From NCBI RefSeq assembly GCF_026930045.1, contig NC_072731.1, positions 137,946,156 through 138,010,155 on the forward strand: a DNA stretch of 64,000 nt, read 5' to 3'. This stretch comes from Uloborus diversus. Taxonomy: Eukaryota. A program made the position numbers and the translations under genes. Numbering within the stretch: the first letter of the stretch is position 1; each line of letters begins with the position of its first letter. The notes under the pieces are model-generated. The model saw only the letters and a program-made list of their open reading frames with translations. It was not told the DNA's origin and did no database searches. This document shows positions 1-61,175 of the stretch, in pieces.

Positions 1-1029
1 CCTCGCCGCGGCAAAACCTTTTGGGGGGAAAAAAAATCGCCGGTCGATGTTTTTTTTACTTTCTTCTACATCTAATATATAGAAGAAAGTATTGGATTCG
101 TGCAAATTTTCGAATTTAGAGTTTTGACGGATTTGAACGTTTTGAGGTGTGCTGAGTCCATTTCGACCCACTTTTGGAAAATGTCTGTCTGTGTGTGTCA
201 CGTATGTGTGTGACCAGGTTTTTGTGGCCGCTCTGCAGCAAAAACTACCGCATGAAATCGAACGAAACTTGGTACACATACGTGAATTTGTGCCATTGAT
301 TTTTCGCGCGAATTCCTCCAAGGGGGGTGGAGCAATGGGACGTTTCTTGAGTTATGCGTACTTGCTATTCCTCAAAAAGTAACTGGCGGAATCAAACAAA
401 ATTTGGTCCATATATTGTCCCTAACAGGTACAGGTGCTGATTCAATTTTGGTGTCAATAGCTCAAACGGAGGTTGAGCTATAGTACTTTTTTTATCGTCA
501 ATTGTGACTGCTGTATCTCAAGAAATAATGGACGGAATCAAACAAAAATTTATCGACAAAGTAGCCCTTAAGGGTATAAGAGCTGAATCTATTTTGGCGA
601 CAACAGCTGAAAAGAGAGTGGCGCAACCGAACGTACTTTTTTTTTTCCATTGTGAGTGCCGTATCTCAAGAAGTAATGCTACATTTTGGAAGAAATTTGG
701 AATAAATGCGAATCCATATGTAAATAGGCGTTGGAAAAAGTTTAATTAGGATGGGCTAGATGGTTTTTGCTACTTCTGGAGGCGGCTCAGTAATGGTCTG
801 ATCAAAGTTTCGCAACGGACGGAAACTATACCAATATTTTTTTGTGCAAGGCAGAATGAATTCTGTGAGTATGTTGATGTATAACGTGTTTAAAACATTT
901 TTTCTGGAAGTTTGTGGCGGAACACCAATCGGTCCACGGACTAGTTTGCGAAGCCCTGCTTTACATAATCACAAAGGCGGATCCTACTTCTGATTTTGGA
1001 GAGGGTAATAAGCGTCAAATTTAAGAGTA

Positions 1030-2470
1030 CAAAACGCAACTTTTAGGCTATCTTTGGTCACGTACAAAAGCAAGGCCTAATCACCGCACAGGCCGGCTGG
1101 GCCTGGGGCCTCATCTTCCTAAGAGTTCCCGAGAGATCGTGTTCTTTTAAGAAAATAATAAAAAGGTATTTTATTGATCGGAAAAAAAACCTATTTTGAA
1201 ACTTATGATTATATTCAATAACCAAATTAAATTCTCAAGAAAATACATTACATTTTTATACTTAACAGTATTTTCCTTATTTAGTTGGTTTTATATGAGA
1301 AGAGAGCTTTATTTTTTGAGAATTTCATGCCAAGTTACGTATAGTCACTCCACCCCTCCCCCTGCCCATAAATAAAAGTATTTGTGAGAGGTGGGGGGGG
1401 GGGGGTCTCCTCTATTTGAGCTATTCAAGTATTAAGTTATAAAAACGGATATAAAAAACAATGGTGATGTTAGGCCGATGCTGCGTCGTATGCGGAGCAG
1501 TGAGATGATGCGGAGGCTAGAAAAAGGCGAAACCCCCAAAGTACACCACACCAACTCGCAGCAGGCGACTAGTGGAGCATTATAATGAACTACTATATAC
1601 TGCCAAAATATAAAAAGCGCATTAACTTTGGTCTCGAGAATTATAAAGATCTCTGAAACTGTTCAACACCAAGAAATTCATCATTTTCAGTGGCGGCTAC
1701 TGGGATTTAAAACTGCAGGGGTACACAATTTTTGGAAACTGAATACTTGATTTTCGGCTATCTTTGGGACTTCGGGTGACTTAGGAGGGGGGGGGGGGGG
1801 CTTCGGAGACTCTCTTCAGGAAATTCTTCGAAGATGTACTCTTAAAAGAAGCTTTTGGGCTGTATTTCGTAAAGTAAAGATTGGGATATGCTCTTCCTGA
1901 AAAAAAAAAGTATCCAAACTGGTATCTTAAAAACGCTAATTCAGGTCATCTTCAGCAAACTTAGAGCAAGGAATTCTGGGATTCTCTTCCGAAAATTTTG
2001 CGAAACCTAAAAACCCAATTTTAGTTTCTTTGGTGATTTCCGAGAAAAATTCAGAGAGTAACCCATTCCCCCCCCCCTGAAATGGAGTCTTTCTTGGAGT
2101 AACTTTAAAATTGGAGAACTTTGTAAATCTTTGCTGGTGAACGGCGAAGGGGATTGATTCACTTCCTAAAAAATATTCTAAAATTGGGGATCTTTATAAA
2201 ACAAATTTAGGTCATCTTTGAGGTTGGGGGAAGGAGAGAGTGTGTTTGGGGGTTCTTCCCGAGATATTTTTTGAAATTGAAGTCTTAAAATTACAATTTT
2301 AAGCTATCTTGGGCGACGTTAGGGTTTTTGTTATCTTCACTAATTGTTTCGAAATTAAAATTTTAAAAGTGATTAGGCGATCTATGATGATGAAAAAAGG
2401 GCGAGTCGGTCCCCCCCCCCCTTCTTCCGAGTCGCCGCGACTGGTCATTAAGGGATTTTCCTATGTATGT
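1030..2470. repeat. degenerate tandem array (units about 150-270 bp)
   Basis: A recurring unit has TTTTAGG(C/T)(C/T)ATCTT(T)GG, then a G-run (GGGGGGGGGGGGGG), then TTCTTCC and GAGA. Copies sit near 1040, 1750, 1940 and 2210. Confidence 0.4.
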
Positions 2471-4789
2471 AACAGAACTAGAGAGGTAGCTAGGAGGGAT
2501 GTGTGTGATATATCCCTTCCCAACACTAATAGTTTTTCCTTTAAAAAAAATAATAAATAAATCTCAAGACTATTTCAAAACGCTTGGTTCGTGCTCAAAA
2601 TAATGAAACAAAATAAGTACATAATTTCTTGATTACAACACTCAAAGATTGCAGTTGATCTTAATGTCTTTATATTAATAATAAAGGAAAGCATTAAATA
2701 AGGGAAAGGCTATGCAGAGTAGTTTCATTAGATCTGTCAGGCTGATAGGCATCTTGAGATAAATAGAGGAATAGTGCTTTCAACACAGTCTTCCTAATTA
2801 GTTAGTTCATTAATTGGTTCTAAAGTAGCCTTTGAGAAGAAAGAAGTGAGACAAATAGGTCTGAAGGATTTGTCCACATATTATCTTTGCCAACTTGTGG
2901 GATGAAGATAACCTTAGTCGGCCTCTAGGTACTCGGAACATTCTCTAAAAAGCCTGCAAAGTATATGGGAGCAAAAACTTTTATTCCCTTCAGATTCCAG
3001 AAGATGGGCAGGAACTTGGATATCCACACCAGGAGTTTTGAATGAGTTGATTGCCCAAATACCCCGCTCACAGGCAACAATTCTTTTAGCAGTCCTACTT
3101 GCTGCTAGCACACCCGCCTGTTAGTATGGTAATCAACAAGAATGGGCCATCAATGACACTAGAATCTGGGAAGTGCACCTTGATCATATTTGCAAAAGTA
3201 TCTGCTAGATTCCGAAAAGCTGCCACTTGAAAGGTTGATGAAATTTAAGCCACTGTTTCTGTCCTTGGAATAAATAAAACATCAAGTTCAAACTTGTGCA
3301 AACTTGGAAACTACAGGACCAATATCTTGGAGATTTTCAGTTTGTCCAGGTTACTGCTGAGAAAGTTTACACACCATTTCAAAAAAAAAAAAAAAATCGA
3401 TGAACAGTTCTTTTTTTTTATTCGAAATTTAAATTTTTTTGACCCAAAAATGCTGAAGTCTCTGCTGGATTCTTAAAAGCTGTTTCTGTCCTTGGTCGTG
3501 AATTTCATGATTCTTGCTGTAGAAGAAATAAATAATTAATCTTACTACAGAACTGCCTCTAGGGGTAATTTTTTTTTCATGTCCCTATCACAGCTGGTGA
3601 GGGCAATTTTGTAAGTTTTTAGAAATGATTAACTTTAACTATAAACAAATTTCCCGTTCCTGGGTTTTCCATGCAGTACCTAAGAATATTAAGATGCTTC
3701 TTTGACACTAAGAATATACGTTTTATATTCTTTATGGCATATTAATATCAATTAATGTACATATAGTTACAAAAATTGATAATCAGATGACACAATGAAA
3801 AAAACATTCCGACTTGTTTCACTTTTTAAATATTCTGGTTCAAAACTAACTTCATGTTGTACAATATTCACATTATGTGGACAACTTCAGCTCCATGTTT
3901 AGTTTACACTGTCATCTTAACTAAAAATTCAAAATATAGATTATGGATTTCTGAAGTATAACTTCTTGCATGTATATGAGTCTTATTTTTTTTATAGGAG
4001 AAAGAAAAAAAAAGATCAATTATTTTTTAGAATTTTGTAAAAATGAAGAAGTTGGTTTTTATGTTCATGCACAATTATTAAATGAATACATGACAATATT
4101 TAATGCAACAATATTTGCTTTATTAATGTGCAAAATAGTAAAAAATGACAAAATTTCTAAATTGCTATAATTTTTAAACAAATAATAATACTATACATAT
4201 TCTAAGCAGAACATCAACAAAAAAGGAAATCACAAACATAATTACTTCAAATATAGATGTAAATATATTTTCTTCTTATATCACTTTCTTGAGACCTAGA
4301 TAGGTCAATGACATTTTGACTCATCTTGGAATCGATCAAATAATTAATGCCCTTTTAATTCAATAAAACTTATGTTAGAATCTTCAAGCACAATTCAACC
4401 TTTCTTTCCAGAACTACTGAATCTTAATACATGATGAAACTTTTTTGCCTAGTATCTGCTTTTAATTCATATAAACACTGTTGATATTTTTTAGTTCAAT
4501 TATCTTTTTATCATAGCTATTCTATGAGTTGAAAGAATCAAAGCTTCCTTTTTTTTTCTTTTTTTTTTTTGCAGTTAGAACTAAGCATAACACAAAGTAG
4601 ACAAAACGAGCTGATATGTGCATCACATGACTTCCTTTTACGCCAATTTAATAATAATAGTACCTTGGAGTAAGCAAAGAAACTTTAAATATTTTTAACT
4701 CAAGTTTGTTGCGAACTGAAGCAAAAAAAAAAAAAGAAAAAACGTTTTATACAGATTAATTTTTCCAATGTTGGTCATTTTAATGTGAT

Positions 4790-5340
4790 TCAATGGTTAA
4801 CTCTCTAATTGTCACCAATAGTGGCCAAAATAAAACCAGATTTAAAAATTAAAAACGCCAAGTGGGCGAAAAAACTTGGTGACCAAAAGTTTGGCGATGT
4901 ATTGCCAAGTGTTTGACAAATTATTACACCACTTGAGTTTGCATTGAAATTAACAATGATTTCCCCCCCCCCCAAAAGTGCAAAAGACCCCCTTAGGAAC
5001 ATCCAAATGCAACCAATAAGGGAGGTGCACAACTAGACTTCACTAGGAGTCTACATACCAAATTTCAACTTTCTAGGACATACCGTTTTTGAGTTATGTG
5101 AGACACACATACACATATGCACATACATACTTATATACATATGGACCTCACGAGAAAACTCATTGTAATTAACTCGGGGATTGTCAAAATGAATATTTCT
5201 GGTGTCTATATGTCTTTAAGCATACATCCACATGTGGTCCGGTTGAAAAAAAAAAAACTCATATTAATTCGGGGGTGAGTGAAATGGAAATAAAGCCCAG
5301 TTTTTGAGTGAAAATTTTTTCCCGAATACAATACTTACTT
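4790..5340. repeat. about 520-bp dispersed/tandem repeat family, solo copy
   Basis: Shares roughly 80% identity over its length with the two tandem units at 34190-35275. Common segments include GTTTGCATTGAAATTAACAATGATTTCCCCCC and AATACAATACTT(A/C)CTTTA...AAAAGGAAGTAA, which ends in a hairpin. Confidence 0.7.
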
Positions 5341-6979
5341 TATTATGTAAAAGGAAGTAATAAAAGCATATTTAATAAAAAAAAATAAAATTGACTTTGT
5401 AAAATAACAGAAACAGTTAAAATGTTTTACATTCATTTTGAAGGAAAAAATAGAAAAAACAAAAAAAACCCCAAGATTTTCAAACACAAGAGAAAGCAAA
5501 CCTAAATATATTGCTCGTGTATGGGTCAATCTCACAGGATGCTACAATTGCAAAATTTGATACCTCAAAAACATATTGGGGAAAGCTCTATTTAAACAGG
5601 GCCATAAGTGAACATGGTATGTTTTACTAAAATAACATAATTAGAAGTTAAAAAATCTTGACAAAGTCTCAAGTGATGATATAGTACCAGTCCCACCTCT
5701 CTTTGTAAAACTTTTAGAGCGATGAATCATTTTGTGCATCTGTGGTCACAGGTTTAGCAGGTGTGGTAATTTTATCACCGACTTCTATAAATGGAAATAG
5801 TTTAAACTAACTAATAAGCTAAACTTAACTGTTGCAAATCATTATACGAACATTCGGATAAGTTGATGACTATATTCAATTCAAATTTCTTAATTTCTGC
5901 AAATTGGTCCAAAGGCAAATTAGTCCTGATGAGGCACTTGGTGAAAACACAGCACCAGGAAATTATTTTATTTACTATTTTATTACTATTTTATTCTTAG
6001 TTACATAACAGCTAAAAATAAATAGAGAAAAATAGTGGACACATATTTTGAAGGACAGTATTTTGTAATATTATCTGAGAATGACTCATATGCATACACA
6101 CACTTCTGTCAAAAAACCAAAGTCAAAAAGCGTTAGAAAAAAATACCAGTTGTTTAGTTAGAGAAAAAAAACCAAACTGATCAGCTGTGCATGCAAGTAA
6201 TTCACATTTAGTTTCAATGACAAATTTTCAACTGTGTACAGAAAACACTAAACTATTAGCAGATATCTTTTTTAAAGGGGACAATTTCATTTTTACTATA
6301 TGAATAATTTTTGAAATGTTTTGCTTATGCAACAGCAGATTACTCACAAAGGCAGCATAAACATCCCTCAAGGTGATGTCTAGGGCCAATGAGAATTCCA
6401 ATTCGTGTCTGGAGATTGAAGTAAATGCAATCAAAATTTGATTTTAATATTAAGTAGATATTCAGCCAAACCTAAAAATGCTTTGATGCCAAATATTTTA
6501 CAAAGTGTGGGAAATATATTCATTTTAATGCAACAATTTAAGATTTTATAGCACACTAAGAGTGGTTCTACCTAGAGATCAACATCACTTTCCCAATGAT
6601 AATAACTGTACGAGCCTCGGGTATTCAAATTGGCTTTCATAACTGTTTGTCTTAACACAGAACTATTTTGATGACTATACCAACATTAATATATAGTTTT
6701 CAGACACACATACACAAGTATAACAATGAAGCATTTCAGTGGACCACTTAATGGAATGCCCCTCGCCCAACTTATGCTATGCTCCATTTGTCATGAATAA
6801 AATATAAAACACTCTCGAATTAAAAACATGTTTTCACTTTCCCTGAGTTGATAGAGATCAGTCATTTTGCTCCACTTTATCAGCCCTAGTAACAGGAATG
6901 TACTAAAAACATACCCTCCACATCGAACACTTAATATTAATTACATATTTTGACTGACACAACATAAACATCATCCACA

Positions 6980-6985
<6 letters not shown>

Positions 6986-7031
<46 letters not shown>
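6986..7031. repeat. poly(A) tract of about 46 nt
   Basis: Seen directly. It may be the tail of a retroposed element upstream. Confidence 0.9.
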
Positions 7032-7036
<5 letters not shown>

Positions 7037-7164
7037 TACAAATACGGATGTCATAAAATTTCAAGTCCTTTTAGTTTTGGTATTTCCTAACTATTTTAAA
7101 TATTTAATATTTTGAATTTGATTAATTTCAATAGCAACCGTAAAAATTCAATAGCAGTTGGAGG

Positions 7165-7443
7165 GTATGGATACAAGAGCGCCCATATAGGGGAGCATGG
7201 GGGGCTCAACCCCCCCCCCCAGAAATAAGAACTTCCTTGCTTTTAGCGCTTTTTTCTTTGTAAAAACGCATAAAAATTTCTTTTCAAGCCATTAATGCAT
7301 AAGTTATTAAAAATGTCACGGTTTAACATCTCTAATCTATACTGAAATCGGTTTCCACAGGGAAAATATTCTGCTAAACCATGGGGAAAATTTTTGAGCC
7401 CCCCTCTTAAAATTTTGTACATGGGCGCCCTTTGTATGGATAC
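7165..7443. mobile_element. MITE family copy A (about 280 bp)
   Basis: Ends GTATGGATACAAGAGCGCCCATATAGGGG...GGGGGGCTCAA and TTGAGCCCCCCTCTTAAAATTTTGTACATGGGCGCCCTTTGTATGGATAC form inverted repeats. A related copy lies at 33222-33472. Confidence 0.45.
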
Positions 7444-8322
7444 AAAAAAAAATCATGCACATCAATTCTTATTTTACAGCACTTTTCATGGGTTGCACAG
7501 AAATAATAGTGTCACAAAGAGCACCTATATGGATGTTGGATTTAAAATTTAAAAAAATGCCAACAACCACTGCACTAAACTTCAAAAATACTTTCTCTCT
7601 TATCACTTAGCAAATCAATAATACTTCTTAGGCACAACTGGCTTTCAATAGGAACTCATTTATTAAACTCAACCAATAACGTTTAGTTTTTCTAGAAAAG
7701 AAGAATATTTTTCAAATTAAAAAATATACCATTTTTTATTGCTTAATAAATTATGTATTTGGAAATCTCATTTAGAAATATTTTTTAAGCATAAACAGTT
7801 CGACATTTTTAAAATTTATATTATCATTTTGGTAATTAACTAAGAGTAATGTTCAGGCTTTTTACAAGCTATAATAATATAAACTGAAGTAAAATTTAAA
7901 ACTGCACACTTATATATAATTCACATATTGATTGCATATTTCGTAAAATTATTCTGAAGCACAAGTTTAAATTTAACTTAATAGACAACATTAAAAATCA
8001 TGAAAAATATTGAGACAGTTTAAACATACATAAAGGCATCTTAACTAAACATTTGATAACATTTGAACAAAACAAAATAATTTCTATTACTATCAGAAAT
8101 ATTAGTAATAATAAAAAAGAGCATTATCTAAGATTCATAAAATCGTTTAATAGAAATTACTTTTTAGCTCTAAGTTCTGTGTTTCATAAATATATTTTTA
8201 AAACCAATATTCTTTAAACTTTTAATAAAAGCATTAATCACATTGAGAAATACATTGTTATTGGTTTGTAAACACACATTCATGCAATTCATTCATTCCT
8301 TTAAAACAAAAACAAAACTACA

Positions 8323-8710
8323 TGAAATACACCGCCAGCTCAGTCATTTCCAGCCGAGGACTGCAGTTTCGTGCTTATTAGCACTCATCAGCCCGGCATA
8401 GGAAAGTGACTGAGCTGGAGATGGAAAACCTCTTAAGGAAGCCAAGAGTGCAAAACAAACTGGTAGCTAATATGGAATTAGCAGACCATATGCCTTGCGT
8501 TCAATCTTCGAGTTGAACCGAACCATTGCTTCGGTCACTCGTCTGGTCTGCTAATTCCATATTAGCTACCAGTTTATTTCGCACTCTTGGCTTCCTTAAG
8601 AGGTTTTCCATCTCCAGCTCAGTCACTTTCCTATGCCGGGCTGATGAGTGCTAATAAGCACGAAACTGCAGTCCTCGGCTGGAAATGACTGAGCTGGCGG
8701 TGTATTTCAC
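8323..8710. repeat. long near-perfect palindrome (arms about 170 bp, loop about 45 bp)
   Basis: Positions 8331-8500 are the reverse complement of 8541-8710. Three 60-nt blocks checked by hand are identical, with a few mismatches only next to the loop. Each arm also holds a smaller hairpin (CCAGCTCAGTCATTTCC and GGAAAGTGACTGAGCTGG). Confidence 0.85.
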
Positions 8711-10592
8711 GTATTTCTGCTTTAGCCCTGGCTAATGGGCGGTAATTTACTGAAAATACAAAACTACTTTCAAAGCAAAAAGTGGCACCCAAGACAAGCA
8801 ACAATATTTAAAACAGCATTGCAAATTTAACAAGTAATAAATTGTATATTTAACAAGCCTACTCTATTTATACCATAAAAGACACTTCTAACCCGATGCA
8901 ACATTTGTAAACATTTATGCTAGAAAAATTATCTACAATAGAAGCAAGTCTTTTTAATGTCTTTCAAAAACATTTAAAATGTCATGATTCAGAAAGAAGT
9001 TTCACCTAAAGCTACATTTGGCATAGCTTATTAAACATACATAGTTTTCAGAGCACACCAAGAAACTTTTTTGTGCTGTTTCATTTTAGCAAAAGTATGA
9101 TGAATGCAAAATGCTGAATTTTATATTTAGCATTGACTCAATTAAAAGTATTAGCTGTACTTGTAAACACAATGCATAAAAAATATCACACATAAAAAAT
9201 AAGTAAATAGTTTTTATTTCTAATAGACATTTGTTCTGGGTATTAGTTCCCCCTAGCACAGGGAATTCCAAAATATATTTTGGGAGAAGGAAGGAGGGGG
9301 ACAGCTTTTTTTTGACTCAACCTTCAAAAGTTTTGGATTCACAAAGTTGAGTCAAATAGATTTCAAGGACTTGATTTAAAAGCACTTTGCAATAAAATTT
9401 TAAAACTAATTCTTTGGCATTGAACACACTTTTTCATATTATACAAGATTTGTTGATAAAATTTCAAGTCATTAGAACACGATGCATAAAGCATTCATAA
9501 AATAAGAGCTGTTTTTCATGAAACTTGCTGCAATACAGCTACTATCTGCTGAAATAAATGCATTTTTGTAATTAGGATTATGACCTTAGTTTCAAATGCA
9601 ATTAAAAAAACTAAAAATTTCCTTTTTCTTCTTAGGTCCCAAATCATTAGTTTGATCCCGTACTAGCATTTACACAATGCACACTTTTGGAATGTAATTA
9701 GTAATGGGTGACATAGAAATGGTTGTCTTTTACTAATGATGGTAGTACATTTAACTGACAAGCTCGAGAATCTAATACTGAGCTTATTGCTATGCAAAAC
9801 AATAAAGCTCTAAAAAAAAAGCACCATAATTTTTTTAGCTGGTTGCAATGCTAGTGATCATGAGTCATACTTTAAAAAAATACAGCATAGTTACAAATAG
9901 AACATTTTCTACTTGCTTGAGATTTGAAGTACTTGGTACACAATCTCAAAAATTAAATTCAAATCCAAGTTCAAATAAATTTTTACCTTACACTGTTTAA
10001 AACAATTAGCAGGCTACATTTATGCTCGAAGTCTCTTTACTATATATTTTAATATATATATATATTGCATAAAATTCTCTTATCAATACTTTTCACAACG
10101 AGAAAAAGATTGATAAGATAAAATTACTAATAAAAGAGCTTTTTATTAATAAACCTTTAACAATTATTTTCCACCACAGAGAAACTTTAAAATTAAATAA
10201 GAATGATCAACTTTCAGTTACAGCAATTTACAGTTGAGTTCTGTAAATTTATAAGCATTTCTAGAAATAAGAACAATTAAAGAAATTCAAATAAAATAAC
10301 CACTTTTCTTAATGAGAGGTTGAAAATCATTTTCCAAAATATCTGTATGTTTATAAAGCTTAAAATTTAACAAAAACGATGAAATTTTTAAATACAAAAA
10401 TACAATACTCTCATATTGTTTGTGCTAAATTTATACTGTAGCGCCATTAGTGTCTTGAAATTTTCATCAAAGCTTCAAAATTACTTTCTAAAAGGAAGAG
10501 CAATGAAAATTATAAGTACAAAAAGCAACCTGCTTAAAACTATATATTTTGCACTTAATGAAAGGTAATTTGAGCAGTACTGAAATCATCTG

Positions 10593-10751
10593 TTACATAT
10601 CAGAAACACTATCAGTACGCTGCTTCTTTGAAAGAGAACCAGACATCATGGCTTGCCCTAAAAATCCTTGTGCAGTGTTGAAAAGATTAATTGGAGTATT
10701 GCCATCAGTAATGAGTGCAGACTGAATACCCAATCCTTGAAGCAATTTTAC
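10593..10751 (-). CDS. MVP: MVP terminal coding exon 14 (includes TAA stop at 10593-10595)
   Basis: Acceptor ttttttag. Reads [52 protein letters not shown] then stop. Human has [32 protein letters not shown]. Confidence 0.9.
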
Positions 10752-11224
10752 CTAAAAAAGAGGTTCCAGTACTTTAGTTTAAAGATAGAATTAGTTTTTA
10801 ATGCAACTTTAATTAACTTGCGCTTGAAACGATTTTTATGAGTTAGTATCAGTTGAACAGTTTGAAAGATTGGCAAATAAGAGCAGAAGGCTTCTCTAAA
10901 ACGCACAAGTAATCAGACATTTTTATGATTTACGAAATTTAAGTAATGATTTCCCATCTCTGGTGGGGAAGTTATAAAATTTTAAACTTTTAATTAAGAA
11001 TTTATCATCTGCTGTTACCACTGGCTGATTATTAAGTGGTTCTTGGCTTGTTTAAATCATTCATATGAGCCATTTGTTTTGAAAGTGGGGCAAGTTCATT
11101 GGAGCAAGATAATGGTAATTATAGATAACACTTAGTATGATCCTTTTATATGCAACAATTTAAAAGCAAATAAATAAATTTTCATCCTAAGTTGAAGCTT
11201 TAGCTCTTCTGTACTAATAATAAA

Positions 11225-11842: not shown

Positions 11843-12727
11843 CTCATATATAGTTAAAGGAATTTATACTAGATTACACCATTCAAAAAAAAAAAAAAAA
11901 AAGAAAGAAAGAAAAAAAAATCCACCTCACTATGTGACTGACTGATAGACTCTGAACAACCGAAGCAAAATTGTAGTAAAAAACAATTTATATAAATAGC
12001 ACATTGACAATGTAAATAAAAGTTTAAATCAAATAAATGAGCTTGAATAGTTAAGATCAGTGAAAAAATTATTTCTATATTTCTGACATACTACAAAGTG
12101 AAAAAGCGTGTAAGAAAAATATGGATCAGCACAGAGATATTCAGATTTATAGAGAGTTTTGAATAACTTAATTTATTAGCAAAAAACTAAACAATATATT
12201 ACATATGCTTCAATTGCTAAGACTTGACAGCAACAACTAATCTTTGACTATTCTGAGCCATCCTGTTACCACAGCAGTAGTAGGAAACAATATTTAGTGC
12301 TCATTGAATTTGAAGAAATACTTAAATTCAATCCCAGTCAGATATGTATAGCCATTTTAAATTCTTATCAAAACTTTCTTACTCATACACCACAAGAATA
12401 AAAAAGTCCATGTAGTGAATCTTTTCTAACCATTAATACATTCAATCACTTTAGTATATACCCATGCAAGAAAATTTAAAATGAACTAGACTTAGAGCAA
12501 ACTAGTATTAAAGGAATTGCAGAACATACAATGTCATCCAGGTTATCCAACTTAAAATAAACAAGGAAAAAAAAAAGATTATTCAAATTACACCATGAAA
12601 TAAAGAAAATATCACCAAGCATATATTTAAATAAGAGAAAAACAGCATTAATTGCACTTTAAAGGATCGAGTTATTGTCTATAATGAAATGTATAACATA
12701 ATTTCTTAATAGACAAAAAATGCTTAC

Positions 12728-12916
12728 TTGAAAATCTTGACCAGCTGCAGCTACCGACTTAATAGTATCAGTACCTAAGCTTTGAATCAGACTTGTGCAT
12801 TTCTTAATTTCAATCTCTGCCAGTTGCTGAGACTTTGCAATTTCAAGTTCATTTTTCTTTGAAAGGTAGTCTAACTCTGCAGTACGTGCTTTTTGCAATC
12901 TTTCCAATTCCATTTC
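12728..12916 (-). CDS. MVP: MVP coding exon 13
   Basis: Acceptor cctttcag, donor GTAAGC. Reads EMELERLQKARTAELDYLSKKNELEIAKSQQLAEIEIKKCTSLIQSLGTDTIKSVAAAGQDFQ. Human has [63 protein letters not shown]. Confidence 0.9.
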
Positions 12917-26635: not shown

Positions 26636-27502
26636 CTTAAAATACAATAATTCTTTAGTAAAATGATTCTTTGGTTTATATATAGAATGTACTTGTAATA
26701 GTAAATTAGAAACAGTTCTTTTCATGTTTTAATTTTCACTGAATTATACACTTTAGTAAAACATGATTGCCTAATTTGAAAGACATAAAATTTCTAAAAT
26801 AAAATGTTTTTTACATCTAATTAATTTTTCTAGGACAAATTTATTTTAATTATTATACAAATAATTATTAATGAGTTTTTTTTGTAATAAAGGTATATTA
26901 AAAATACTAAAAATATTCTGTATATGAAACATATGAATGCTAGCTTATATGGAATAAAAATCAGAATATAAAGTACAAAAAGTAGAATAGAATCATAAGT
27001 GAAATAGAATTGCGTGAGATTCTTTTATTTTCAACATGAAGGCATATGTAAAACACGTTCACTAACTTTAATATTTAATAAGAGAACAAAGATATTTTAC
27101 ACTGAAATGCAGAAAAAATATCTTGGAAGGAAAAAACTGTTAAATATATAGTGCAAAAGCTGGAGCACAAACTCATTTTTAAAACTAAAACTGTGTAATA
27201 AAATACTACCCTATAAACACAATGTTTAAAGGCAAAATAATAATAAGTGCAGCTATTAATTCAATAAATGAAAAAACCAGCACTTAAGTTAGGCAAAAGC
27301 ATTTTTTTTATGCATTCTGCTATAATGTGAAATGTCTGCAGTGTAATTTAAATACTAGATGGCTAGAAAAAAAATTCTTAAAAATTTCCAAGCAAATTCA
27401 AGAACTTTTGAAACAAAAGTATACATTTCACAGAAACTATATAAAGCATTCTTTATAATTTTTCATAGTAAAAAGTTTAGAAAAGATAGTTTTTTAAAAT
27501 AC

Positions 27503-27768
27503 CTTGATTGTTTTTTCTTATAATCATATACTTGAACAGCAGCATTATGCGGCACACGTAAGGTAATAGCTTTGGCCCCATCCTCTTCTGATTTGTGAGT
27601 CTTGGTCTGCACAGCTGGTGCATTTGCTGATCGCATCCTCCATGTACCACGATCACTTAAAGGGTCAGTTCCTTGAGTTAGAAGTTCTTGTACTTGAGCT
27701 GGCAATTCTTTAATCCACAATTCTTCATCTTGAGTCAACATGTATGTTGAGCCAGACACTAGGCGAAC
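27503..27768 (-). CDS. MVP: MVP coding exon 8
   Basis: ORF-track frame reads [41 protein letters not shown]...[21 protein letters not shown](R). Acceptor ttttttag, donor GTATTT, ends in phase 2. Human has [41 protein letters not shown]...[20 protein letters not shown]. Confidence 0.9.
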
Positions 27769-28200
27769 CTAAAAAACACAAAAACATGTTACTGAGAAAG
27801 TTGCCGCCCTTCAGGCAGTGCTGGTGCAGAACTACGTGCCAACCAATATACCAATAGCCTGGTTATGCCATCCAGAGACTACAGTTTCATTCTTGTTATC
27901 GACTCATCAGTCTGGCTTAGCTGTCACAAGATGACATCTGCCTTCAGCTTGGTTATAGTCTATTCCAGACTGACAAGTCCATAACAAATATGAAACTGCA
28001 GTTCTTGGATGGTAAAACCATGTTGTTAAAGCTCAAGATTAGTGCCAACTGGCGACCATTTCATAGAAAACAGGTGCCCAAAAAAAAAAAAAAAATCCCA
28101 CTACTCGTCAAAAGTGGTGAACAAGTCTATGAACACTTTCGTCTTACATACTTATTATCTCAGGAAAAAAAAACATGCATAAAAAAGAGATTATACTTAC

Positions 28201-28911: not shown

Positions 28912-28984
28912 GGATAACGGTGGCTCAGTGGTAGAATTCTCGTCTCCCACACGAGCAACTTGGGTTCAAATCCCGACTAGGACA
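28912..28984 (+). pseudogene. tRNA-Gly(CCC)-like sequence without an acceptor stem (probable tRNA-derived SINE head)
   Basis: Box A TGGCTCAGTGG at 28921-28931 and the D-arm AGTGGTAGAATTC are present. The anticodon stem-loop CTCGT/CTCCCAC/ACGAG is perfect with anticodon CCC at 28946-28948. The T-arm TTGGG/TTCAAAT/CCCGA contains box B GGTTCAAATCC. The 7 nt upstream (ATAACGG) cannot pair with the 7 nt downstream (CTAGGAC). An A-rich tract ends near 29410. Confidence 0.55.
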
Positions 28985-29401
28985 AAGTGAATTTTACTAA
29001 AATTTCGTTTCTACTGTTTTCCGTATTTTCTCGAATGTTCTATTAATTTCTGTATCTTTTCAAGTCTGGAAAGTTCCAGCACTTTTTCAAGTTGTATATA
29101 AGGAGATGTAACGTTCATTCGTGGCTCTGAATAAAGATCTCGAGTTGAGACTAACGAGTATTCGCTTCATTTGGCTTTCACATTGTCTTCGCTATCTTCA
29201 TCTACGCGACAATATGAAACTCATTGTTATAAAAGTTTGGTGCCATATAACTGTAACATTAATAGTAATTGTAATGATAATTTTGAATAAAGGCTTTTCT
29301 AAAGCAATATAGTGATATAGAGCCGCACTTCTTACTAGGTAACTTCTTACTTTTACTGAAATATCTACATTTACACTAAAAAGAATGAAATAAAAAAAAT
29401 T

Positions 29402-29824
29402 TTGAAAAAAAAATAGAACCGACTTCAAAATTGCTCTAAAAAGTGAAAAATAATTTTATTCTTTAAACATCATCGATAATACTTTTAAACATAATTTTTG
29501 AAGTTGGCGCAAAAACAAAAAGTAAAATCCATTGTAACCATGCTTCGTTCATATTTTTATCAAAAAATCATCCAAACTTAGGAACGAAACATTTATATCG
29601 TTACTCAAATATGCTGTCATCAATGCGTAATGCATGTGGTAGTGAAGAAACTGGACGTGGTTAAATTTATACTTGTAGTTGAGTTATGGCTGTGAATGGT
29701 TTTATCGATCGTTTTTGCGCCAACTTCAAAAATTATGTTTAAAAGTATTATCGATGGTGTTTAAAGAATAAAATTATTTTTCACTTTTTAGAGCAATTTT
29801 GAAGTCGGTTCTATTTTTTTTTCA
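29402..29824. mobile_element. foldback-type MITE (arms about 114 bp, unique core about 195 bp)
   Basis: 29408-29515 is the reverse complement of 29711-29818 with one mismatch seen. The end motif TAGAACCGACTTCAAAA also appears as a fragment at about 28650. The flanks (TTTGAAAAAAAAA and TTTTTTTTTCAAAA) are themselves inverted. Confidence 0.6.
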
Positions 29825-30682
29825 AAATTTTTTTTTTCTAACTTCCTATAACTTCAAAAATGGCTGAAATTGATGTTATTAAGAATTCAGTTTCAGAATC
29901 TTTTCTAGGAAAAGAACCCCTTTACCCTCACATCAGCAAAGATAAAGCATAAAGTTCCATTTTAAAGACTTCAATTAAGAAAAATTCATTTGTAGTCCCT
30001 TGAAACTTCCTCTGAAGTCATTATAGAAAGTCTTAAACTGAGTTTTCAAAACTTCATCAATTTAAAAAAAATTACAACGGACAACCACCAAATCCCTTTT
30101 TCCTCCTGTAGTCACCCAAAGATGCACTGAAATAACGCTTTTAAAGCTTCAAGGTCCAAAAATTTCAGGAGAAAACCCTCAACTCTGTAAAATTGCAAAA
30201 GAGGACCAAAACTTTCTCTTTTAATACAACAGTTGCAGAATATTTTCGGCAAGAGCCCCTTAGCGTCATCAAAGATAACTTCAACTTTTTTTTTCTTTAA
30301 ATTTTTTTAAAAAGATTTCATTTTTGAAGAATTACCAAGGGACAGTCTTGATTCCTCCACACCATTCTCTAAACGTTGACACAACAATTGTTTTAAATTG
30401 CACTTTTAGAACTATCACTTATGGGGATAAGCCTTAGAAGTCTCTCCACCTCGCACAGATGGCCTAAAATAGTCTTCAGCCTCAAAAAAAAAAAAGTGCC
30501 CCTGTACTTATCCCAAAACCAGGGGGATCAACTGTCCCCTTTTGAACCCCATAAATGACAAGCTTTGCACCTACTTATCATGAACTAAACAGAAAATTCA
30601 AAATAAAATATTAATGTAATAAATTAACAGCTGTAGAAGCATTTAGCAAATGAACAACATTAAAATATTAAATAGAAATTAC

Positions 30683-41169: not shown

Positions 41170-44100
41170 GGGGACCGTGGACCTTCCAAATAGCTCAAAT
41201 CGGTCAAAAATATGATTTTTTTATTCCGTGGAAGTAACAATATATGAAGTGTGCTGAATCGTATGAAAAAACCTCTTGTTGATCTGACGTTTTATCGCGA
41301 AGTTATATGCGTTTAAAAAAAAGTAAACAAAGCGTATTTTCCATTAAAATGACTGTAAAACATGTAAACAAAGTCGAAAAACTAAGTAAAACTAAGTGTC
41401 AAAAATGTAAACTTAGTTTTAATAAATTCTATCATTGGTATTAATGTCAAATATTTAGTCATCGTGAAAATATCTTTCGGGAGGTATTAAAATACGAAGA
41501 ACATGAAATGTAGTTGAAATTAGACTTTAACGTCATTTATCTCGGACTGGAAAATTCGATGCGACACAGATTGGAAAAAGCTCCATGCGACTTAATATTT
41601 GTTCGATATGCTTCAAATTTCAGAATATGATACTTTGGTAGTAGTTTGATAAAACTGGGTATGCATTAAGGTTTAAGAGAATTTTATGTTGCTTAAAAAT
41701 ATTAAAGTTTTGATTTTTATGTAATATTCGCAACAAAAACTATTGCTTTACGCGAAAAAAAATACTGTGCAGTTAATAATGGACCAATCCTTAACTGTTT
41801 AACCGCCGAACTACTGTTGGAAGATCAAATTTGAGTAATTTTTTGAAATTATGTCTATTTATGTCTAGTAAATACAGAAATAAAATAAAACTTCCAGAAA
41901 ATTTTTTTTTACTATGTTTTTCAGTGTGTTCCATTTTTGAAACATTGGCGCTTTGCATGAAGTTTTTTTTTTTCAGAGAATTTTTTTAAACTAAGAGGTT
42001 TTGAATGCAGTTTTTATCTTAGCATACTTTATTACGGAAAAAATAATATTTTATATTGCATTTATGTACATACCAGAATTCAGAAAATCCAATACAGAAA
42101 TATCTAATGCCCATGATATGAAAAGAAGCATTGCTGGTGAAGTCATTTGTCGCAATGGAAACATTTCTTAGTCGTATTTTTTTTGCACACCGCACAACGT
42201 CCCTGGGATGCAGATACAATGAAATGTCCGTCAGACATTCTTGATTTTTTATGTAAATGACAACGAGGCCCTGGATGACTTTCCACTCGTACTTTTCTTC
42301 TTAGAAGGTGAGTTGTTATTTCTCTTCGGAACTCTAAATGCTTCATCTTGACTTCGTGTAACTCACAATGAAGTAACCAACTAGCTACAACTGAAATATT
42401 CAGAGCATTACTAAAAAGATTCCACTACCATTTTTTACTCCTCAAATGAGGTCTGTAGCTCCCTAAAAGTTTATCCAAGACGTCCACGCCCCCCATTCCT
42501 TCATTGTATCTCTTGATAAGATGAGGTTGTGGCACATCTATCTTGCATTTCTGCGCATATGAGTAACATTTTACAGATGCAAGTGGCTCATGTGTATAAC
42601 AATTAGATGCTACTGTAACCACTGCATTATCATTCCAGCCGCACATGTACATTGATCCATCAGATCGATAGTCAAAATTTCCTCGATCTTCTTTAGAAAG
42701 GGCTTTTTTGGATTTCAGTGGACAATGAGCAGTTCGGTTTTCACGAATTGTTCCTGTTGCTCATACACCTTTTTTTGATAGCTGAGAAATTAAGTCATAT
42801 GATGTAAAAAAAGTTATCAAAGTATACTTCATGCTTAGACGTGTCAGTCAAAACTGATAATAGATCATTTACAAATCTGGATCCTAACTGCACACCAGGG
42901 GATCCTTCTTTTTTGCTTGAATAAATCTCCATGGAATATGGGTATCCACTTGAAGGGCACAGCATCCAAATTTTGAAACCGAATCTTATTGGTTTTCCTC
43001 TAATAAACATTTTACATGAATGCTGACCGTAGTAGGGATCCCTAGATTCTATGCTCAATTTTTCATGAAATACACCAAATTGTTGAAGGTTTTTACACAA
43101 TTCTTCGTAAATAGGGTATACTTTTCCAAGTTTGTCATTTTGTTTTAATTCATGATTGTCCATCAAATGAAAGTTGTTTTTTATTTTTCAAAAAAGATTT
43201 CGAGGTATAACTGTTGGTACAATTGGCACAGATGTATCTTCTGCATTGCTCCAATACATATCTTCAGAAGGAACAGAATGGTATCCACTCAATAGCAGCA
43301 AACCAAAAAATTGTAGGATTTCATTTCTGTCAACATCTATTGATTCTCCTTTTTGCAATGCATACAAGTTTGTCACATTTGCTAAGTGTTCAACATACTG
43401 CAAAGGTAAAATTTTAAAAAATAAATCAATTGGAGATAAATCCACTATATTCGGAAATGCGTGTTTAAGCGATTCAATACTTTTTGACGAAATCAGTTTC
43501 TGAAAGTTAGCTTTCTTCTCCCAAGTTAAATCCATTTTCATTCTTTTTCTACTTTTATTTCCTGATAATTCCAACTTTTTCTTTTTTTCCGTTTTCATTC
43601 GCTTTTTTACTTTTATTATCTAATGATTTCAGACTTTGTTCTTCCTCCGATTTTTTTGTTAATTTTCACGAGAGTTGGCGGAAAAAATGTCCACCTGTCC
43701 ACATACATCAATTGGTGTAATATGTTGTAACTCGTCTTCTAGAATGTCTTCTTCCTCAGTGATATTGCCTGGTTCATCACGGGGTAATTGGCATATATCT
43801 ACATCTGACAAATTCGAATCTGACAATGTCTCTAAATAAGCCACAGCTTGTTCTACAGTAAGAAATCTTGTAGACATTTTTTAACATTTATGAACAGTTG
43901 GTATACGTCAAACAGAATTTCGTTTCACTCGAAAACAAAGCTAGCGAAATATTGAACTGCATTTAAAATATGAAGAATAAAACGCTCACTAATATTGTTT
44001 TTTATTATCATGTGACAATGCAGCTGTCTGAGCAGGTGTGGATTAGGAGCCATATAGTTCGTTAAACAGTAGACTATTATTTTCTTTGCTAACGAAACAT

Positions 44101-51650: not shown

Positions 51651-52320
51651 TCCAAATGAGGTCTTACCAAACTTCTATATAAAGGCAGAAGAACTTCTTC
51701 AGATTTGTTTGAAATAGATCTATTGATAAACACAAGCATCTTATTGACTTTGTTACTAGCTATGCTGCACTGTAGGCTAAACTTTAAATCCTGACTTATT
51801 AAGATGATTAAGACCCAGATCAGTAACTTTTTCTGCCTGACTAATGACTGAACCTTGCAAATAATAACTTGTACACTTATTTCCATGCCCTAAATGTAGC
51901 ACTTGACATTTCCTAACATTAACAGCCCACTCCCTAATACGATCTAGATCCTCTTGCAGCTGATTTGCTCGTTCTTCATTTTCTACACTCCCCATAACTT
52001 TGACATCATCAGCAAAACAAGTCATGTTTCCAGGAATATTTTTATGAATATCGTTCATAAAAACAATTAACAAAACAGGCTCTACCACTGATCCTTAAGG
52101 AACCCCGATTAAAATCTCACTCCAATTAGAATAATTTTTCCTTACAACTACCTTCTGTTTCCCTCTGGTCAGCCAGTTTTTTACTCAAATGAAAGATTTC
52201 CCTCCTATTCCTATATCAGCAAATTTGCTAAGTAGAGCAACATACAGTACCTTATCGAAAGCTTTTTGAAAATCAATGTAAACAACATCTACAGGCTTCT
52301 TATTGTACAGATAGACGTAG
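51651..52320 (-). pseudogene. CR1/L2-like LINE reverse transcriptase fragment (5'-truncated element, upstream part)
   Basis: Minus strand reads YNKKPVDVVYIDFQKAFDKV...GSVVEPVLLIVFMNDIHKNIPGNMTCFADDVKV...LYRSLVRPHLEYA. These are the FxDFxKAFD and F/YADD reverse transcriptase motifs. There is one internal stop and one frameshift. Confidence 0.8.
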
Positions 52321-57129: not shown

Positions 57130-58190
57130 ATCCTTATTGACACCCATTAAAGCAAGGTGCAATGACAAATAAGAAGACTAAAAGTCTTCCTAATACTATT
57201 TTTACTAAGCAGCCTTTTGCATTTTCGGCATGTGATCCCCGGAAAGAATCAGGACTGTCCTTCTTAGGATGACCAGCTGAATATGTTCAATGTCATTGTG
57301 AGATAACTTCTCCGAGGGTTGGTTTCTCTCACAACATCCATCATAAGCATATTCCATACTTGAGCATAGGACTGTGGTTGATCTGTTCTTACTCTTAAAG
57401 ATGCAGCGGTTTGTGCAGGCGAAGGAGTTGAAACCTCCAACCAAAAATTTTTGGTTTCTCTTACCTTCTCATGAAAGACCGGCTCAGTGATTTTCACCTC
57501 CTCTGAAATCCACTCCCTCTCCCGCCTGCACTTGTTACATTTTTGTGCAAAATTGAGTACTCCCTGTCCCCTTACTCTCTGCTTCGGTGGATTGCAAACT
57601 TGCACCCTCACCTCCTCAAGCAGCAAGGTTGCTGGTTTTCTCCTTCAAGCCAGCTTCCAACTCCATGAGAGCTGGGAACTGTGAGGTGGTAAACGGTCAA
57701 CACCCGCTCAACCACCCTGTACGAGTTTAAGGCAAAGTGCAACAAGGTTTCGCCCGGTTCCTCTATGGGACCATTTAAGACATCATACAACCCAGATACC
57801 ATCCATCCATTAGCCTCACACCTTAGATTAGGTGTCTATTTTAGTCGCCTCTTACGACACGCATGGACTACGTTGGGACTATTCTGCTCCCGGTCACCAC
57901 ACGGAGAAGCAACAGGTTAACCTAGTCTCACTACCAGTCACTAGCCAAAAGCCTCCTAAATAGAGTCTCCGGTTAGCTGTTCTTATATTAAAACATTTTA
58001 GGAATACCAACCACTGATGTCATCAACCAGCGTGAGATCAACTTCTGTTTTTACCTGACAACTGTGAAGTGAACCTTGAGATCCAAGCCAGTTTGTATGT
58101 GGAGAAGGGGGGGGGGATGGGCTACTATCACTCACTTCCAAAAATAAAGGGACCTTGTCTCCCCCCCCCCCTTCCATAGTAATTGTTCAA
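57130..58190. other. compositionally distinct GC-rich island (about 48% GC versus about 30% background)
   Basis: About 1 kb bounded by G/C homopolymers near 58110-58160. The ORFs inside show no recognisable domains. Possibly a transposon or LTR fragment, or organelle-derived DNA. Confidence 0.3.
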
Positions 58191-59252: not shown

Positions 59253-59268
59253 GTAAGTTCATCATACA

Positions 59269-59483
59269 TATGAGGCCCCTAGTTTCAAAACCAGATACTT
59301 GCAAAAAATTCGATTTTCTTTTTTTTTTTTTGTTAATCTTGAAGAGAATCATAAGGCCTATTTGCCTGCTCAATATTAGGTTCAAAAACTGCTTCTTTCC
59401 CCCTTGAAATGGGGCGGACTTTTACGTCTCCTGTAAAATTTGGTTTTCTACAAGTATCCGGTTTTGAAACTAGGGGCCTCATA
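59269..59483. mobile_element. Stowaway-like MITE (about 215 bp)
   Basis: A 33-bp inverted repeat TATGAGGCCCCTAGTTTCAAAACC(A/G)GATACTTG sits at 59269-59301 and 59451-59483. Flanks are TA-rich. It begins 15 bp after the ROGDI-like exon 2 donor. Confidence 0.6.
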
Positions 59484-59702
59484 TAGAAAATTAAAAATGT
59501 GAGTTAGCTTATGTGTTCTTGTATGTATCAAATAGTGTTTCCCCCTGACCAAAAAAGGGGCTGGGTGCTTGCATCAGATAAAAGGTCACTTTAATAAATT
59601 TAAAAGGGCAGTTTTTGATTGATGTTTTATAGTAGAAAAGTTTTTTTATTTTATTTTTTTTTTCAATTTTGGTGTACTATATGCACATAAAATGCATGTA
59701 TT

Positions 59703-59705
<3 letters not shown>

Positions 59706-59788
<83 letters not shown>
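59706..59788. repeat. (TA)n microsatellite
   Basis: About 40 TA units, seen directly. It lies about 60 bp from the left end of the second mariner. Confidence 0.95.
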
Positions 59789-59791
<3 letters not shown>

Positions 59792-59846
59792 ATGAAAAGA
59801 TTTTCAATGCTTGGTTTAAAAATTATGCCAAAAACATTCAGATTTG

Positions 59847-61175
59847 TATACGAGGTGTGGCTAGAAAAAAACCGAACTGATGCTATAAAAAAAATTTATT
59901 TTCCATTATTTACAATTTGATGTTATCTCCTTCAATGTACTCTCCTCCTCGGTCTATACACCGCTCCATACGAATTTTCCACTGTTCATAGCAATGCTGC
60001 AGATCATTTTCGGTAAGTCCATACATTACTTCCGTCGCTTTTTCTTTTACTGCTTCAACACTCTCAAATCTAGTTCCTTTCAAAGCTGATTTGACTTTAG
60101 GGAAAAGAAAATAATCACAGGGGCCAAATCAGGTGAGTAGGGTGGATAGTCTAAGATGGGAATGTTGTGATTGGCTAAAAACGTCTTCACTGACAACGCA
60201 TTGTGAGCTGGGGCATTGTCTTGGTGCAGGATCCATGTCTTTTTTTTTCCACAAATCATTCCGTTTTCTCCGTACTCGCTCACGTAGGGTAGTCAGGACG
60301 CTAATGTAGTAATGCTGATTCACTGTTTGTCCCTCTGGTACCCAATCAATGTGTACAATCCCTTTGACATCAAAAAAAACAATCATCATTGCCTTGAATT
60401 TAGATTTTGACATTCGTGCTTTTTTTTGTCGTGGAGAATCAGGAGATTTCCAATGCATCGACTGGCGTTTGGTTTCAGGATCGTAGGTAAAAAACCACGA
60501 TTCATCACAAGTAATAACATTTTGTAAAAAGGTGGGATTTCTTTCAATGTTTTCTAGGATGTCAGAACAAATCATTCTTCGGCGTTCCTTCTGTTCAATT
60601 GTGAGACACTTTGGAACCATTTTTGCACACACTTTGTTCATGTCGAAACTTTCATGAAGATTCTGCCTAACTCTTTCCTTGTCAATTCCTGTCAACTCAG
60701 ACATTGCTCTGATTGTTAAACGGCGATCTTCTCGAACAAGTTTACCGATTTTTTCAATGTTTGCATCAGTTTTTGCTGACAATGGTCTGCCAGTGCGAGC
60801 GTCATCACTTGTGTCTTCGCGGCCATCTTTAAATCGTTTAAACCACTCAAACACTTGTGTTCGCGATAAACAATCATTGCCATAAACTTGTTGCAACATT
60901 ACAAACGTTTCACTTGCTGATTTTCCAAGTTTGAAAAGAAATTTGATGTTAACACGCTGTTCTTTCTGTACACTCAACATTTTTCCGACACACAGACAAA
61001 ACGTCAACTACTTAGAACAGACGCCACAGGCAGACTGAGTGCAGGAGGCAGATGAAACTCGAGCAGTAGGTGGAGCAAGAGTCACGTCACAGGCCAGGCG
61101 ACTTTCAGCCTTATTGCATTCGTTTTATTGTTTCACCTGTGCTAGTTCGGTTTTTTTCTAGCCGCACCTTGTATT
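59847..61175 (-). mobile_element. second mariner-family element, near full length
   Basis: Inverted repeats TACGAGGTGTGGCTAGAAAAAAACCGAACT at 59849-59878 and GCTAGTTCGGTTTTTTTCTAGCCGCACCTTGTA at 61141-61173 match at 28 of 30 positions. They share the TACGAGG start with the other mariner. Confidence 0.8.
59910..60980 (-). pseudogene. mariner transposase with two frameshifts in homopolymer runs
   Basis: The ORF runs MLSVQKEQRVNIKF...ITCDESWFF...WKKK and then shifts at a T9 run near 60241-60250. The next frame gives TWILHQDNAPAH...YSPDLAP. It shifts again at a C-run near 60120 and then reads FFPKVKSALKGTRFESVEAVKEKATEVMYGLTENDLQHCYEQWKIRMERCIDRGGEYIEGDNIKL to the stop. Confidence 0.8.

Follow-up and report, generated by a model that had tools for sequence, protein, structure and literature searches.

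Insertions of Penelope-like elements (PLEs) are heavily 5'-truncated and are often adjoined by an inverted 5'-truncated copy; they often carry a tail of 30-40 bp at one end only, and have hammerhead ribozymes (HHRs) in the pLTR (pseudo-LTR). How their tandem and inverted structures come about is still regarded as undefined (PMC8557442, Craig et al. 2021). The purified PLE protein of Anolis differs from R2 and L1 in that it cuts both target strands and extends both. It prefers AT-rich DNA, and its reverse transcription begins at two neighbouring internal positions, ∼85-92 nt downstream of the HHR cut, whose spacing corresponds to the tail (PMC11167929, Frangieh et al. 2024). Animal retrozymes have been proposed, on phylogenetic grounds, to be non-autonomous PLE derivatives (Li et al. 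2026, bioRxiv 10.64898/2026.07.22.740005), and the consulted portions of the retrozyme literature (PMC7229834) describe only monomers, tandem dimers, and multimers. According to the consulted text of PMC4209133, Schistosoma mansoni has HHRs in pairs, one on each strand with 100-700 bp between them, and these were read as remnants of truncated PLEs. We analyzed a stretch of 64,000 nucleotides from Uloborus diversus (hereafter, the window) that contains a near-perfect palindrome, and we consider it likely that this palindrome is the core of a 432-bp insertion of two 5'-truncated copies of a non-coding HHR retroelement, placed head to head in one event by PLE machinery.

An independent repeat search recovered the inverted repeat as arms 8309-8488 and 8544-8723 (97% complementary, with 55 nt between them), and base-by-base comparison of the clean core (8323-8488 and 8544-8709) gave 164 complementary positions out of 166, which bears out the near-perfect palindrome of a preliminary description made from the letters alone. 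Its statement that the arms differ only beside the loop holds roughly, the two core mismatches (8452/8580 and 8456/8576) being 33-37 nt from the inner ends, but the loop measures 55 nt and not 45. Outside the clean core, the arms run into a noisier outer stretch of 14 nt. The arms are 98.8% identical (divergence 1.2%). Of the six differences between them overall, at least two represent CpG-to-TpG decay; the CpG observed/expected ratio of the genome is 0.58. The genome as a whole is low in GC (32%) and CpG-depleted. The GC content of the palindrome element is 46%, and that of its non-palindromic centre (8489-8543) is 0.49, compared with 0.22-0.28 in the flanks. Since the centre is element-like in GC (49%), one of the copies probably extends 55 nt further 5', and the centre would belong to the longer of the two arm copies; alignment to a related solo copy (B3, see below) did not favour either arm. 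Folding of the RNA, which the preliminary description had proposed, gave −345.1 kcal/mol for 8300-8730, far below the −111.7 ± 5.5 of dinucleotide shuffles (z = −42). The nested hairpin that had been noticed in each arm was likewise recovered, its 20-nt arms being 85% complementary and separated by 54 nt, and corresponds to the extended helix I of a hammerhead.

The palindrome lies, as had been stated, about 1.9 kb downstream of the stop codon of the MVP gene, which runs on the minus strand from ∼53.1 kb to the TAA at 10593-10595, 1870-1883 nt away. The MVP exon at 27463-27759 matched Pfam Vault_4 and Vault_3 as well as solved major vault protein chains (E ∼4e-18), and the plus-strand frames of 1-7000 gave no MVP match in Pfam, which the minus-strand location of the gene explains. 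The closest relatives of this exon were 60-69% identical (Logan runs SRR30809926 and SRR33912015), and the match in GCA_977066305.1 was 54% identical. No Pfam domain was found in the 4.4 kb around the palindrome (stop-free segments of 6600-11000, both strands). In the 64-kb window, there was no PLE reverse transcriptase or GIY-YIG gene, the sole RT fragment (51777-52088) being a weak match to RVT_1, and no ORF of at least 150 aa besides two mariner transposases; a search with the intact mariner ORF found no record.

Each palindrome arm holds a complete canonical type I HHR, the two lying on opposite strands and pointing outward. The right-arm core (8635-8679, plus strand) reads GCCGGG-CUGAUGA-GUGC-UAAUAA-GCAC-GAA-AC-UGCA-GU-C-CUCGGC, and the left-arm core (8353-8397, minus strand) is identical. 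Helix I has 6 bp (GCCGGG/CUCGGC) plus an extension of ∼17 bp (8614-8631 with 8681-8697 in the right arm), helix II has 4 bp (GUGC-UAAUAA-GCAC), and helix III has 2 bp with a palindromic UGCA tetraloop (AC-UGCA-GU), followed by C17. In these helix sizes, the ribozyme agrees with the canonical metazoan type I HHRs described in the consulted parts of PMC4209133 and PMC7229834. Examination of positions C3-U4-G5-A6-N7-G8-A9, G12-A13-A14, and A15.1-U16.1, with cleavage after N-U-H, found the catalytic core complete in both arms (CUGAUGA ... GAA-A ... U-C, and an N-U-H site). Cleavage is predicted after C8673 in the right arm and 3' of the C complementary to 8359 in the left arm. The helix III segment ACUGCAGU is self-complementary, which the literature gives as the hallmark of ribozymes active as dimers, and the active form is probably a dimer joined through this segment.

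Hammerhead_HH9 of Rfam scored 29.9 bits on both arms (8338-8408 in the left arm), with an E-value of 1.5e-5 locally and 0.0019 window-wide. The score is below the gathering threshold of 52 bits, as is expected of a variant with a minimal helix III, and a gathering-mode Rfam scan of the whole 64-kb window returned no ribozyme, the hammerhead emerging at E-value thresholds only. A strict descriptor that we wrote ourselves (core, helices I-III, and NUH cleavage site) retrieved both arms and, with them, a total of three sites from the window, where 0.005 would be expected in each dinucleotide-preserving shuffle. The RNAalifold fold of four copies was partly non-hammerhead, and the explicit HHR structure was therefore scored instead: 90.1% of the sequence-by-pair cells were paired, compared with 25-40% when the partners were slid. 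Across the two subfamilies described below (A and B), 10 of the 29 HHR pairs had changed on both sides, including pairs of the extended helix I, in a set of ∼4 independent sequences with the structure taken from one of them. Such compensatory changes, which keep the fold, appear to indicate an RNA selected in active master copies, of which they are expected.

Window-wide, BLAST and a covariance model (R1, filters off) detected five copies of the repeat at three loci, two of which are head-to-head pairs with differing truncation points. Subfamily A consists of the two palindrome arms (R1 128 bits at 8320-8434, minus strand, and 127 bits at 8598-8712, plus strand), with no further A copy in the 64-kb window, and subfamily B of a pair at ∼27.8-28.1 kb and a solo copy at 61.7-61.9 kb. 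The subfamilies are homologous over ∼130 nt, well past the catalytic core. The older B pair (∼27790-28066, inside an MVP intron) comprises copy B1 on the minus strand (arm 27860-27934, with a tail to ∼27790) and copy B2 on the plus strand (27944-28020, with a degraded tail). Its arms of ∼75 nt are ∼80% alike and are separated by a 9-nt spacer, with the centre on the self-complementary AGATGACATCT. The B1 hammerhead scored 21.5 bits on Hammerhead_1, whose gathering threshold is 34. With the 3' end redefined, the flanks of the B pair showed a possible 9-bp target-site duplication (TSD; AAAACATGT/AAAACAGGT, 8/9, P 0.016) in an A-rich, (AAAAC)n-like target. Judged by these features, the B pair is of the same architecture as the palindrome, but older and with a different inner breakpoint. 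The solo copy B3 (61735-61870, minus strand; R1 109.6 bits) has GAAAU in place of GAAAC and was still retrieved by the descriptor. The long inverted repeat at 29.4-29.8 kb is unrelated to the palindrome and carries no ribozyme. Beyond the window, metagenome contigs contained neither the exact 33-mer sought nor a degenerate pattern of the core, viral contigs likewise lacked the degenerate pattern, and an arm-translated peptide had no match in an index of 5.8 billion proteins; literal sequence strings were absent from the literature text and the one paper supplement searched.

The two outer ends of the palindrome are not equivalent. To the right of the right arm, 44 nt (8710-8753, plus strand) align without gaps and at the same offset to the sequence downstream of the B1 ribozyme at 33 of 44 positions, where 5000 null trials gave a maximum of 27. 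Because of this homology and because its GC is 45% amid surroundings of 22-28%, we take 8710-8753 to be element sequence and not target DNA, that is, a one-sided 3' tail of the right copy; the left copy has no such tail. The HHR lies 36 nt from the arm end, and the cut is ∼36 nt from the proximal 3' end and 80 nt from the distal one. A first TSD test, which looked 25 nt outward only, gave nothing above chance, and a wider search then gave a 14-bp candidate, the putative TSD copies being AAAAACAAAACTAC on the left (8308-8321) and AAATACAAAACTAC on the right (8754-8767), alike at 13 of 14 positions (empirical P 0.003-0.0045). The statistic compares 20 nt left of the boundary with 120 nt right of it, an equal match occurring at 0.3-0.45% of random places in the window. 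With these boundaries, the insertion would span 8322-8753 (432 bp), made up of the left copy (8322-8488, minus strand, 3' end at the outer, left edge), the centre, the right copy (8544-8709, plus strand), and the tail. The 14-mer is low-complexity and A-rich and also resembles the tail in reverse complement, and part of it could be element and not target. The outer 14 nt past the clean arms are symmetrical at 10 of 14 positions (empirical P 0.0025), with mismatches denser (3/13) than in the arms (3/167; Fisher P 0.005). The target 3' end (8308-8321) is complementary to the start of the tail (8711-8723) at 10 of 13 positions, the three terminal pairs being perfect, which suggests priming by microhomology. 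Our reading is that the outer symmetry may be nothing other than this complementarity of the target 3' end with the tail start, in which case the A at 8322 would be the decayed G of an ancestral CpG.

From these observations, the following course of integration can be proposed, its enzymology being borrowed from the element of another species. A staggered break would have been made in an A-rich, (AAAAC)n-like target, the pre-insertion site being reconstructed as ...TTTAAAACAAAAACAAAACTAC|TTTCAAAGCAAAAAGTGG... with a single copy of the 14-mer and the target motif in the model being AAAACAAAACTAC. Both exposed target 3' ends would then have primed reverse transcription of the element RNA, so that both strands were extended, the left one from an internal site with the aid of microhomology to the tail, and the right one from a site ∼44 nt further downstream. 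The microhomology step is our own suggestion and is not part of the published model. The two cDNAs would have grown toward each other, stopped at unequal points, and joined, leaving the asymmetric 55-nt centre. Priming on two strands would give the arrangement in which the left copy is sense on the minus strand and the right copy on the plus strand, with the 3' ends outward and the variable inner ends at the centre. The observed signature is of the PLE type: inverted 5'-truncated copies with variable truncation (arms of 166 nt in A and ∼75 nt in B) and a one-sided, element-derived tail, which at 44 nt is slightly above the published 30-40 bp. A single event is well supported for the palindrome pair since the only two A copies in 64 kb adjoin, are 98.8% identical, and lie within one direct repeat. 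The mobile unit would thus be a young, non-autonomous, retrozyme-type RNA moved by PLE machinery, by analogy with described elements, and the HHR would serve the life cycle of the element through self-cleavage of multimeric transcripts and would not be a function of this locus.

The same features can be set against other origins of the palindrome. A solo copy may have been inverted and duplicated at the DNA level after insertion, by replication template switching or fold-back repair; the asymmetric centre resembles fold-back repair products, and the weak symmetry 13-14 nt past the arms looks as if flank had been copied along. We regard this as unlikely because the different mismatch densities of outer stretch and arms imply different ages, the direct repeat encloses the whole unit, the tail is one-sided element sequence, and the independent B locus has the same head-to-head layout with another truncation point. 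This recurrence speaks for a mechanism belonging to the element itself, as in PLEs. The preliminary description had offered a very recent foldback insertion, and held that many dispersed copies, together with a lack of small RNAs mapping here, would speak for an ordinary foldback transposon. The insertion is indeed young, as its 1.2% arm divergence indicates, with an apparent TSD, and related copies do occur at 27.9 kb and 61.8 kb of the same window, so that the expectation of dispersed copies was borne out in part; it is, however, not a DNA transposon of the Foldback or MITE type. That a non-autonomous DNA transposon, perhaps mariner-moved, has long TIRs that happen to hold a hammerhead is very improbable, in spite of the TA at 8319-8320 and 8712-8713 just outside the CATG.../...CACG terminus, the two mariner transposase genes in the window (one apparently intact), and the presence of an unrelated long-TIR element at 29392-29835. 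Both mariners have TIRs (TACGAGG...) that bear no relation to the ends of the palindrome. The TA pair reads as a palindrome by itself, and agreement over 2 bp carries no statistical weight. A homologous extension of 44 nt on the right only is forbidden by TIR symmetry, the relatives are solo (B3) or have arms of 75 nt instead of 166 nt, and the compensatory changes in the RNA fold point to selection at the RNA level. Two independent neighbouring insertions in opposite orientation are conceivable as nested insertions, since PLE endonucleases can target their own sequences (PMC11167929), and chimeric long reads can yield palindromes in an assembly; both are hardly credible here. Independent insertions are at odds with the adjacency, near-identity, and common direct repeat of the only A copies, and an artefact should be perfectly symmetrical, which is contradicted by the CpG-site differences between the arms, the asymmetric centre, and the presence of a tail on one side only.

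The preliminary description had also raised a hairpin-RNA locus (endo-siRNA or miRNA-like) under selection, with arms kept identical because the duplex is functional. The 166-bp duplex is extremely stable, read-through can be imagined from MVP, 1.9 kb away, where the minus strand has its first poly(A) hexamers at 10147 and 10053, and transposon copies in inverted orientation are known to give rise to endogenous siRNAs. Nevertheless, we judge this reading quite improbable. Selection is not required, as 1.2% divergence with CpG decay suits a young neutral insertion, and the low divergence of the arms follows from the youth of the insertion; the older B pair has decayed to ∼80% arm identity, which indicates that such pairs are not maintained; and the Rfam miRNA matches (mir-3136, MIR821, and others), at 15-30 bits against cut-offs of 80-117, were rejected as generic long-hairpin matches. 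The claim of selection thus finds no support, the near-identity of the arms being accounted for by youth and the CpG decay being neutral-like. If a transcript of the palindrome is made, it would be a Dicer substrate, with nothing to suggest selection for it; siRNAs may arise as a by-product, and at most the locus would supply double-stranded RNA incidentally. A single arm in its native ribozyme fold reaches only about −43 kcal/mol, and since a transcript would contain one sense and one antisense ribozyme with the 166-bp duplex dominant, the locus appears to be a dead-end copy. Judged by its layout, it cannot give rise to a ribozyme-bounded circular RNA, as there is one sense ribozyme per strand.

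In essence, we see in this locus a transposon remnant of an ordinary kind, without evident function for the host, which most likely represents an unnamed subfamily of the known HHR retroelement/PLE-insertion type, and not a new kind of hairpin-RNA gene. There is an outside chance, which we would not put high, that the head-to-head dimer is more than junk, being either a retrozyme-type HHR element with all the hallmarks of PLE integration or a self-made siRNA repressor. Under the former, it would be the first clearly resolved canonical type I repeat with an inverted truncated copy, a one-sided tail, and a TSD; its anatomy would be direct evidence that animal retrozymes move by means of PLE enzymes that prime on both strands, with target/tail microhomology guiding one of the two start sites. 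Under the latter, young inverted pairs would be transcribed (here possibly by MVP read-through), diced, and would silence their own family, so that every dual-strand integration makes its own repressor. Dual-strand cleavage and extension have so far been seen in vitro only, with one lizard element (PMC11167929), and a young insertion is a natural record in which both junctions, the tail, the inner join, and the target duplication are still legible. This record can test the two-start-site, two-strand model and would tie retrozyme-type hammerheads to PLE-style integration by anatomy, beyond phylogeny alone. Annotators of animal genomes with PLEs would do well to look for hammerheads in any long, clean palindrome before labelling it a hairpin-RNA gene.

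Compared with known systems, the palindrome shares with hairpin-RNA/endo-siRNA loci a long near-perfect inverted repeat that would be double-stranded if transcribed, but here this is a potential taken from the fold only, and the older sister pair has decayed. In the L1 twin priming that Ostertag and Kazazian are said to have described in 2001, both strands of the break reportedly prime reverse transcription and produce an insertion with an inverted segment. Twin priming of L1 inverts a different, more 5' part of the RNA and gives no palindrome, whereas here both arms are the same 3' segment. The dual HHRs of Schistosoma (Cervera and de la Pena 2014) have the opposite-strand layout of the palindrome, whose cores are ∼240 nt apart, in so far as the consulted text describes them; they are minimal while those of the palindrome are canonical, and the portions of PMC4209133 consulted give no description of junction, tail, or TSD anatomy. 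With metazoan non-LTR retrozymes (PMC7229834, Cervera and de la Pena 2020), the palindrome has in common the small non-coding unit, GC below 50%, the canonical type I HHR, the long self-paired extension of helix I, and species-specific subfamilies. Retrozymes are, however, defined by head-to-tail tandem repeats that give circular RNAs, whereas the copies of the palindrome are inverted; the tandem arrangement (at least two units of ∼150-450 bp) was absent from the window, as was any direct repeat of the unit. The palindrome differs from PLEs in that no RT/GIY-YIG gene is attached to it or present in the window, which would make it a non-autonomous or extremely truncated copy, and in that its HHR is a canonical type I with helix III, in contrast to the 'min-HHR' which the consulted parts of PMC4209133 give as typical of metazoan PLE pLTRs. 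Otherwise, it resembles PLE insertions (Evgen'ev and Arkhipova; PMC8557442) in the HHR near the 3' end, the inverted 5'-truncated copies, the extension at one end only (∼44 nt here), and the AT-rich, microsatellite-like target, and its distal 3' end lies 80 nt from the cut, close to the 85-92 nt of the Anolis PLE. [quoted passage not shown]

Both hammerhead ribozyme pairs, namely the palindrome and the older head-to-head pair of subfamily B copies in an intron of the major vault protein (MVP) gene, share an A-rich, (AAAAC)n-like target, found at 8308-8321 and at 27763-27789 (TTTAAAACAAAAACAAAACTAC and CTAAAAAACACAAAAACATGT). The likeness of the two sites may reflect either a preferred target or microhomology between the site and the T-rich tail of the element. 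The older pair is followed by an A16 tract (28080-28095) and is only ~30-90 nt from an MVP exon (27463-27759, Vault_4/Vault_3). A tRNA-like sequence on the plus strand (28920-28977), ~850 bp from this pair, scored above the Rfam tRNA gathering score (32.4 bits vs 29) and received no call from ARAGORN; this sequence could represent either a pseudogene or the head of a SINE of tRNA origin.

The MVP gene, on the minus strand, extends over at least 42 kb (10593-53111), and its introns are crowded with transposons. Besides the exon at 27.7 kb, minus-strand exons were recognisable at ~52.8-53.1 kb (N-terminal) and at 12659-12958, and the C-terminal exon (10593-10745) ends in a TAA stop.

Long clean inverted repeats in this genome are not confined to the hammerhead palindrome, as is evident from a young, very AT-rich inverted repeat unrelated to it at 29392-29835, the 136-nt arms of which are 96% complementary and flank a 172-nt spacer. 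Neither a hammerhead nor an Rfam match was found in this repeat, which is probably a long-TIR MITE or a Foldback-like element. A short inverted repeat at 59268-59484 (ATATGAGGCCCCTAGTTTCAAAACC...), with 50-nt arms that are 86% alike and a spacer of 117 nt, looks like a MITE. We also noticed a GC-rich (50%) hairpin at 58096-58181, to which miRNA models matched on both strands, with weak and sub-threshold scores (mir-328, 27 bits; mir-1249, 24 bits).

The window carries two mariner copies of different age. The copy at 19156-20493 is Mos1-like and apparently intact, with perfect terminal inverted repeats (TIRs) of 33 nt (TACGAGGGCTATCC...) and an uninterrupted transposase ORF of 357 aa (19319-20392) comprising the HTH_48 and Transposase_1 domains; this mariner may be active. 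Its exact transposase protein was not found in the public gene index. The second copy (59838-61184) is older, with 41-nt TIRs that are 85% alike and a minus-strand ORF of 292 aa (60129-61007); it adjoins a long (TA)n tract (59700-59790) and is ~550 bp from B3, the solo subfamily B hammerhead copy.

Two neighbouring minus-strand ORF fragments at 42795-43598 matched DDE_Tnp_1_7, a transposase domain of the piggyBac type, with E-values of 1e-15 to 1e-16, and this stretch is a decayed piggyBac or PGBD-like remnant within an MVP intron. Another minus-strand fragment (51777-52088) is of a reverse transcriptase, with a weak match to RVT_1 (E 2e-4) and a CFADD motif, and lies downstream of the first coding exon identified for MVP, at a distance of ~700 bp; this FADD-type motif we take to be LINE-like in appearance and not Penelope-like.
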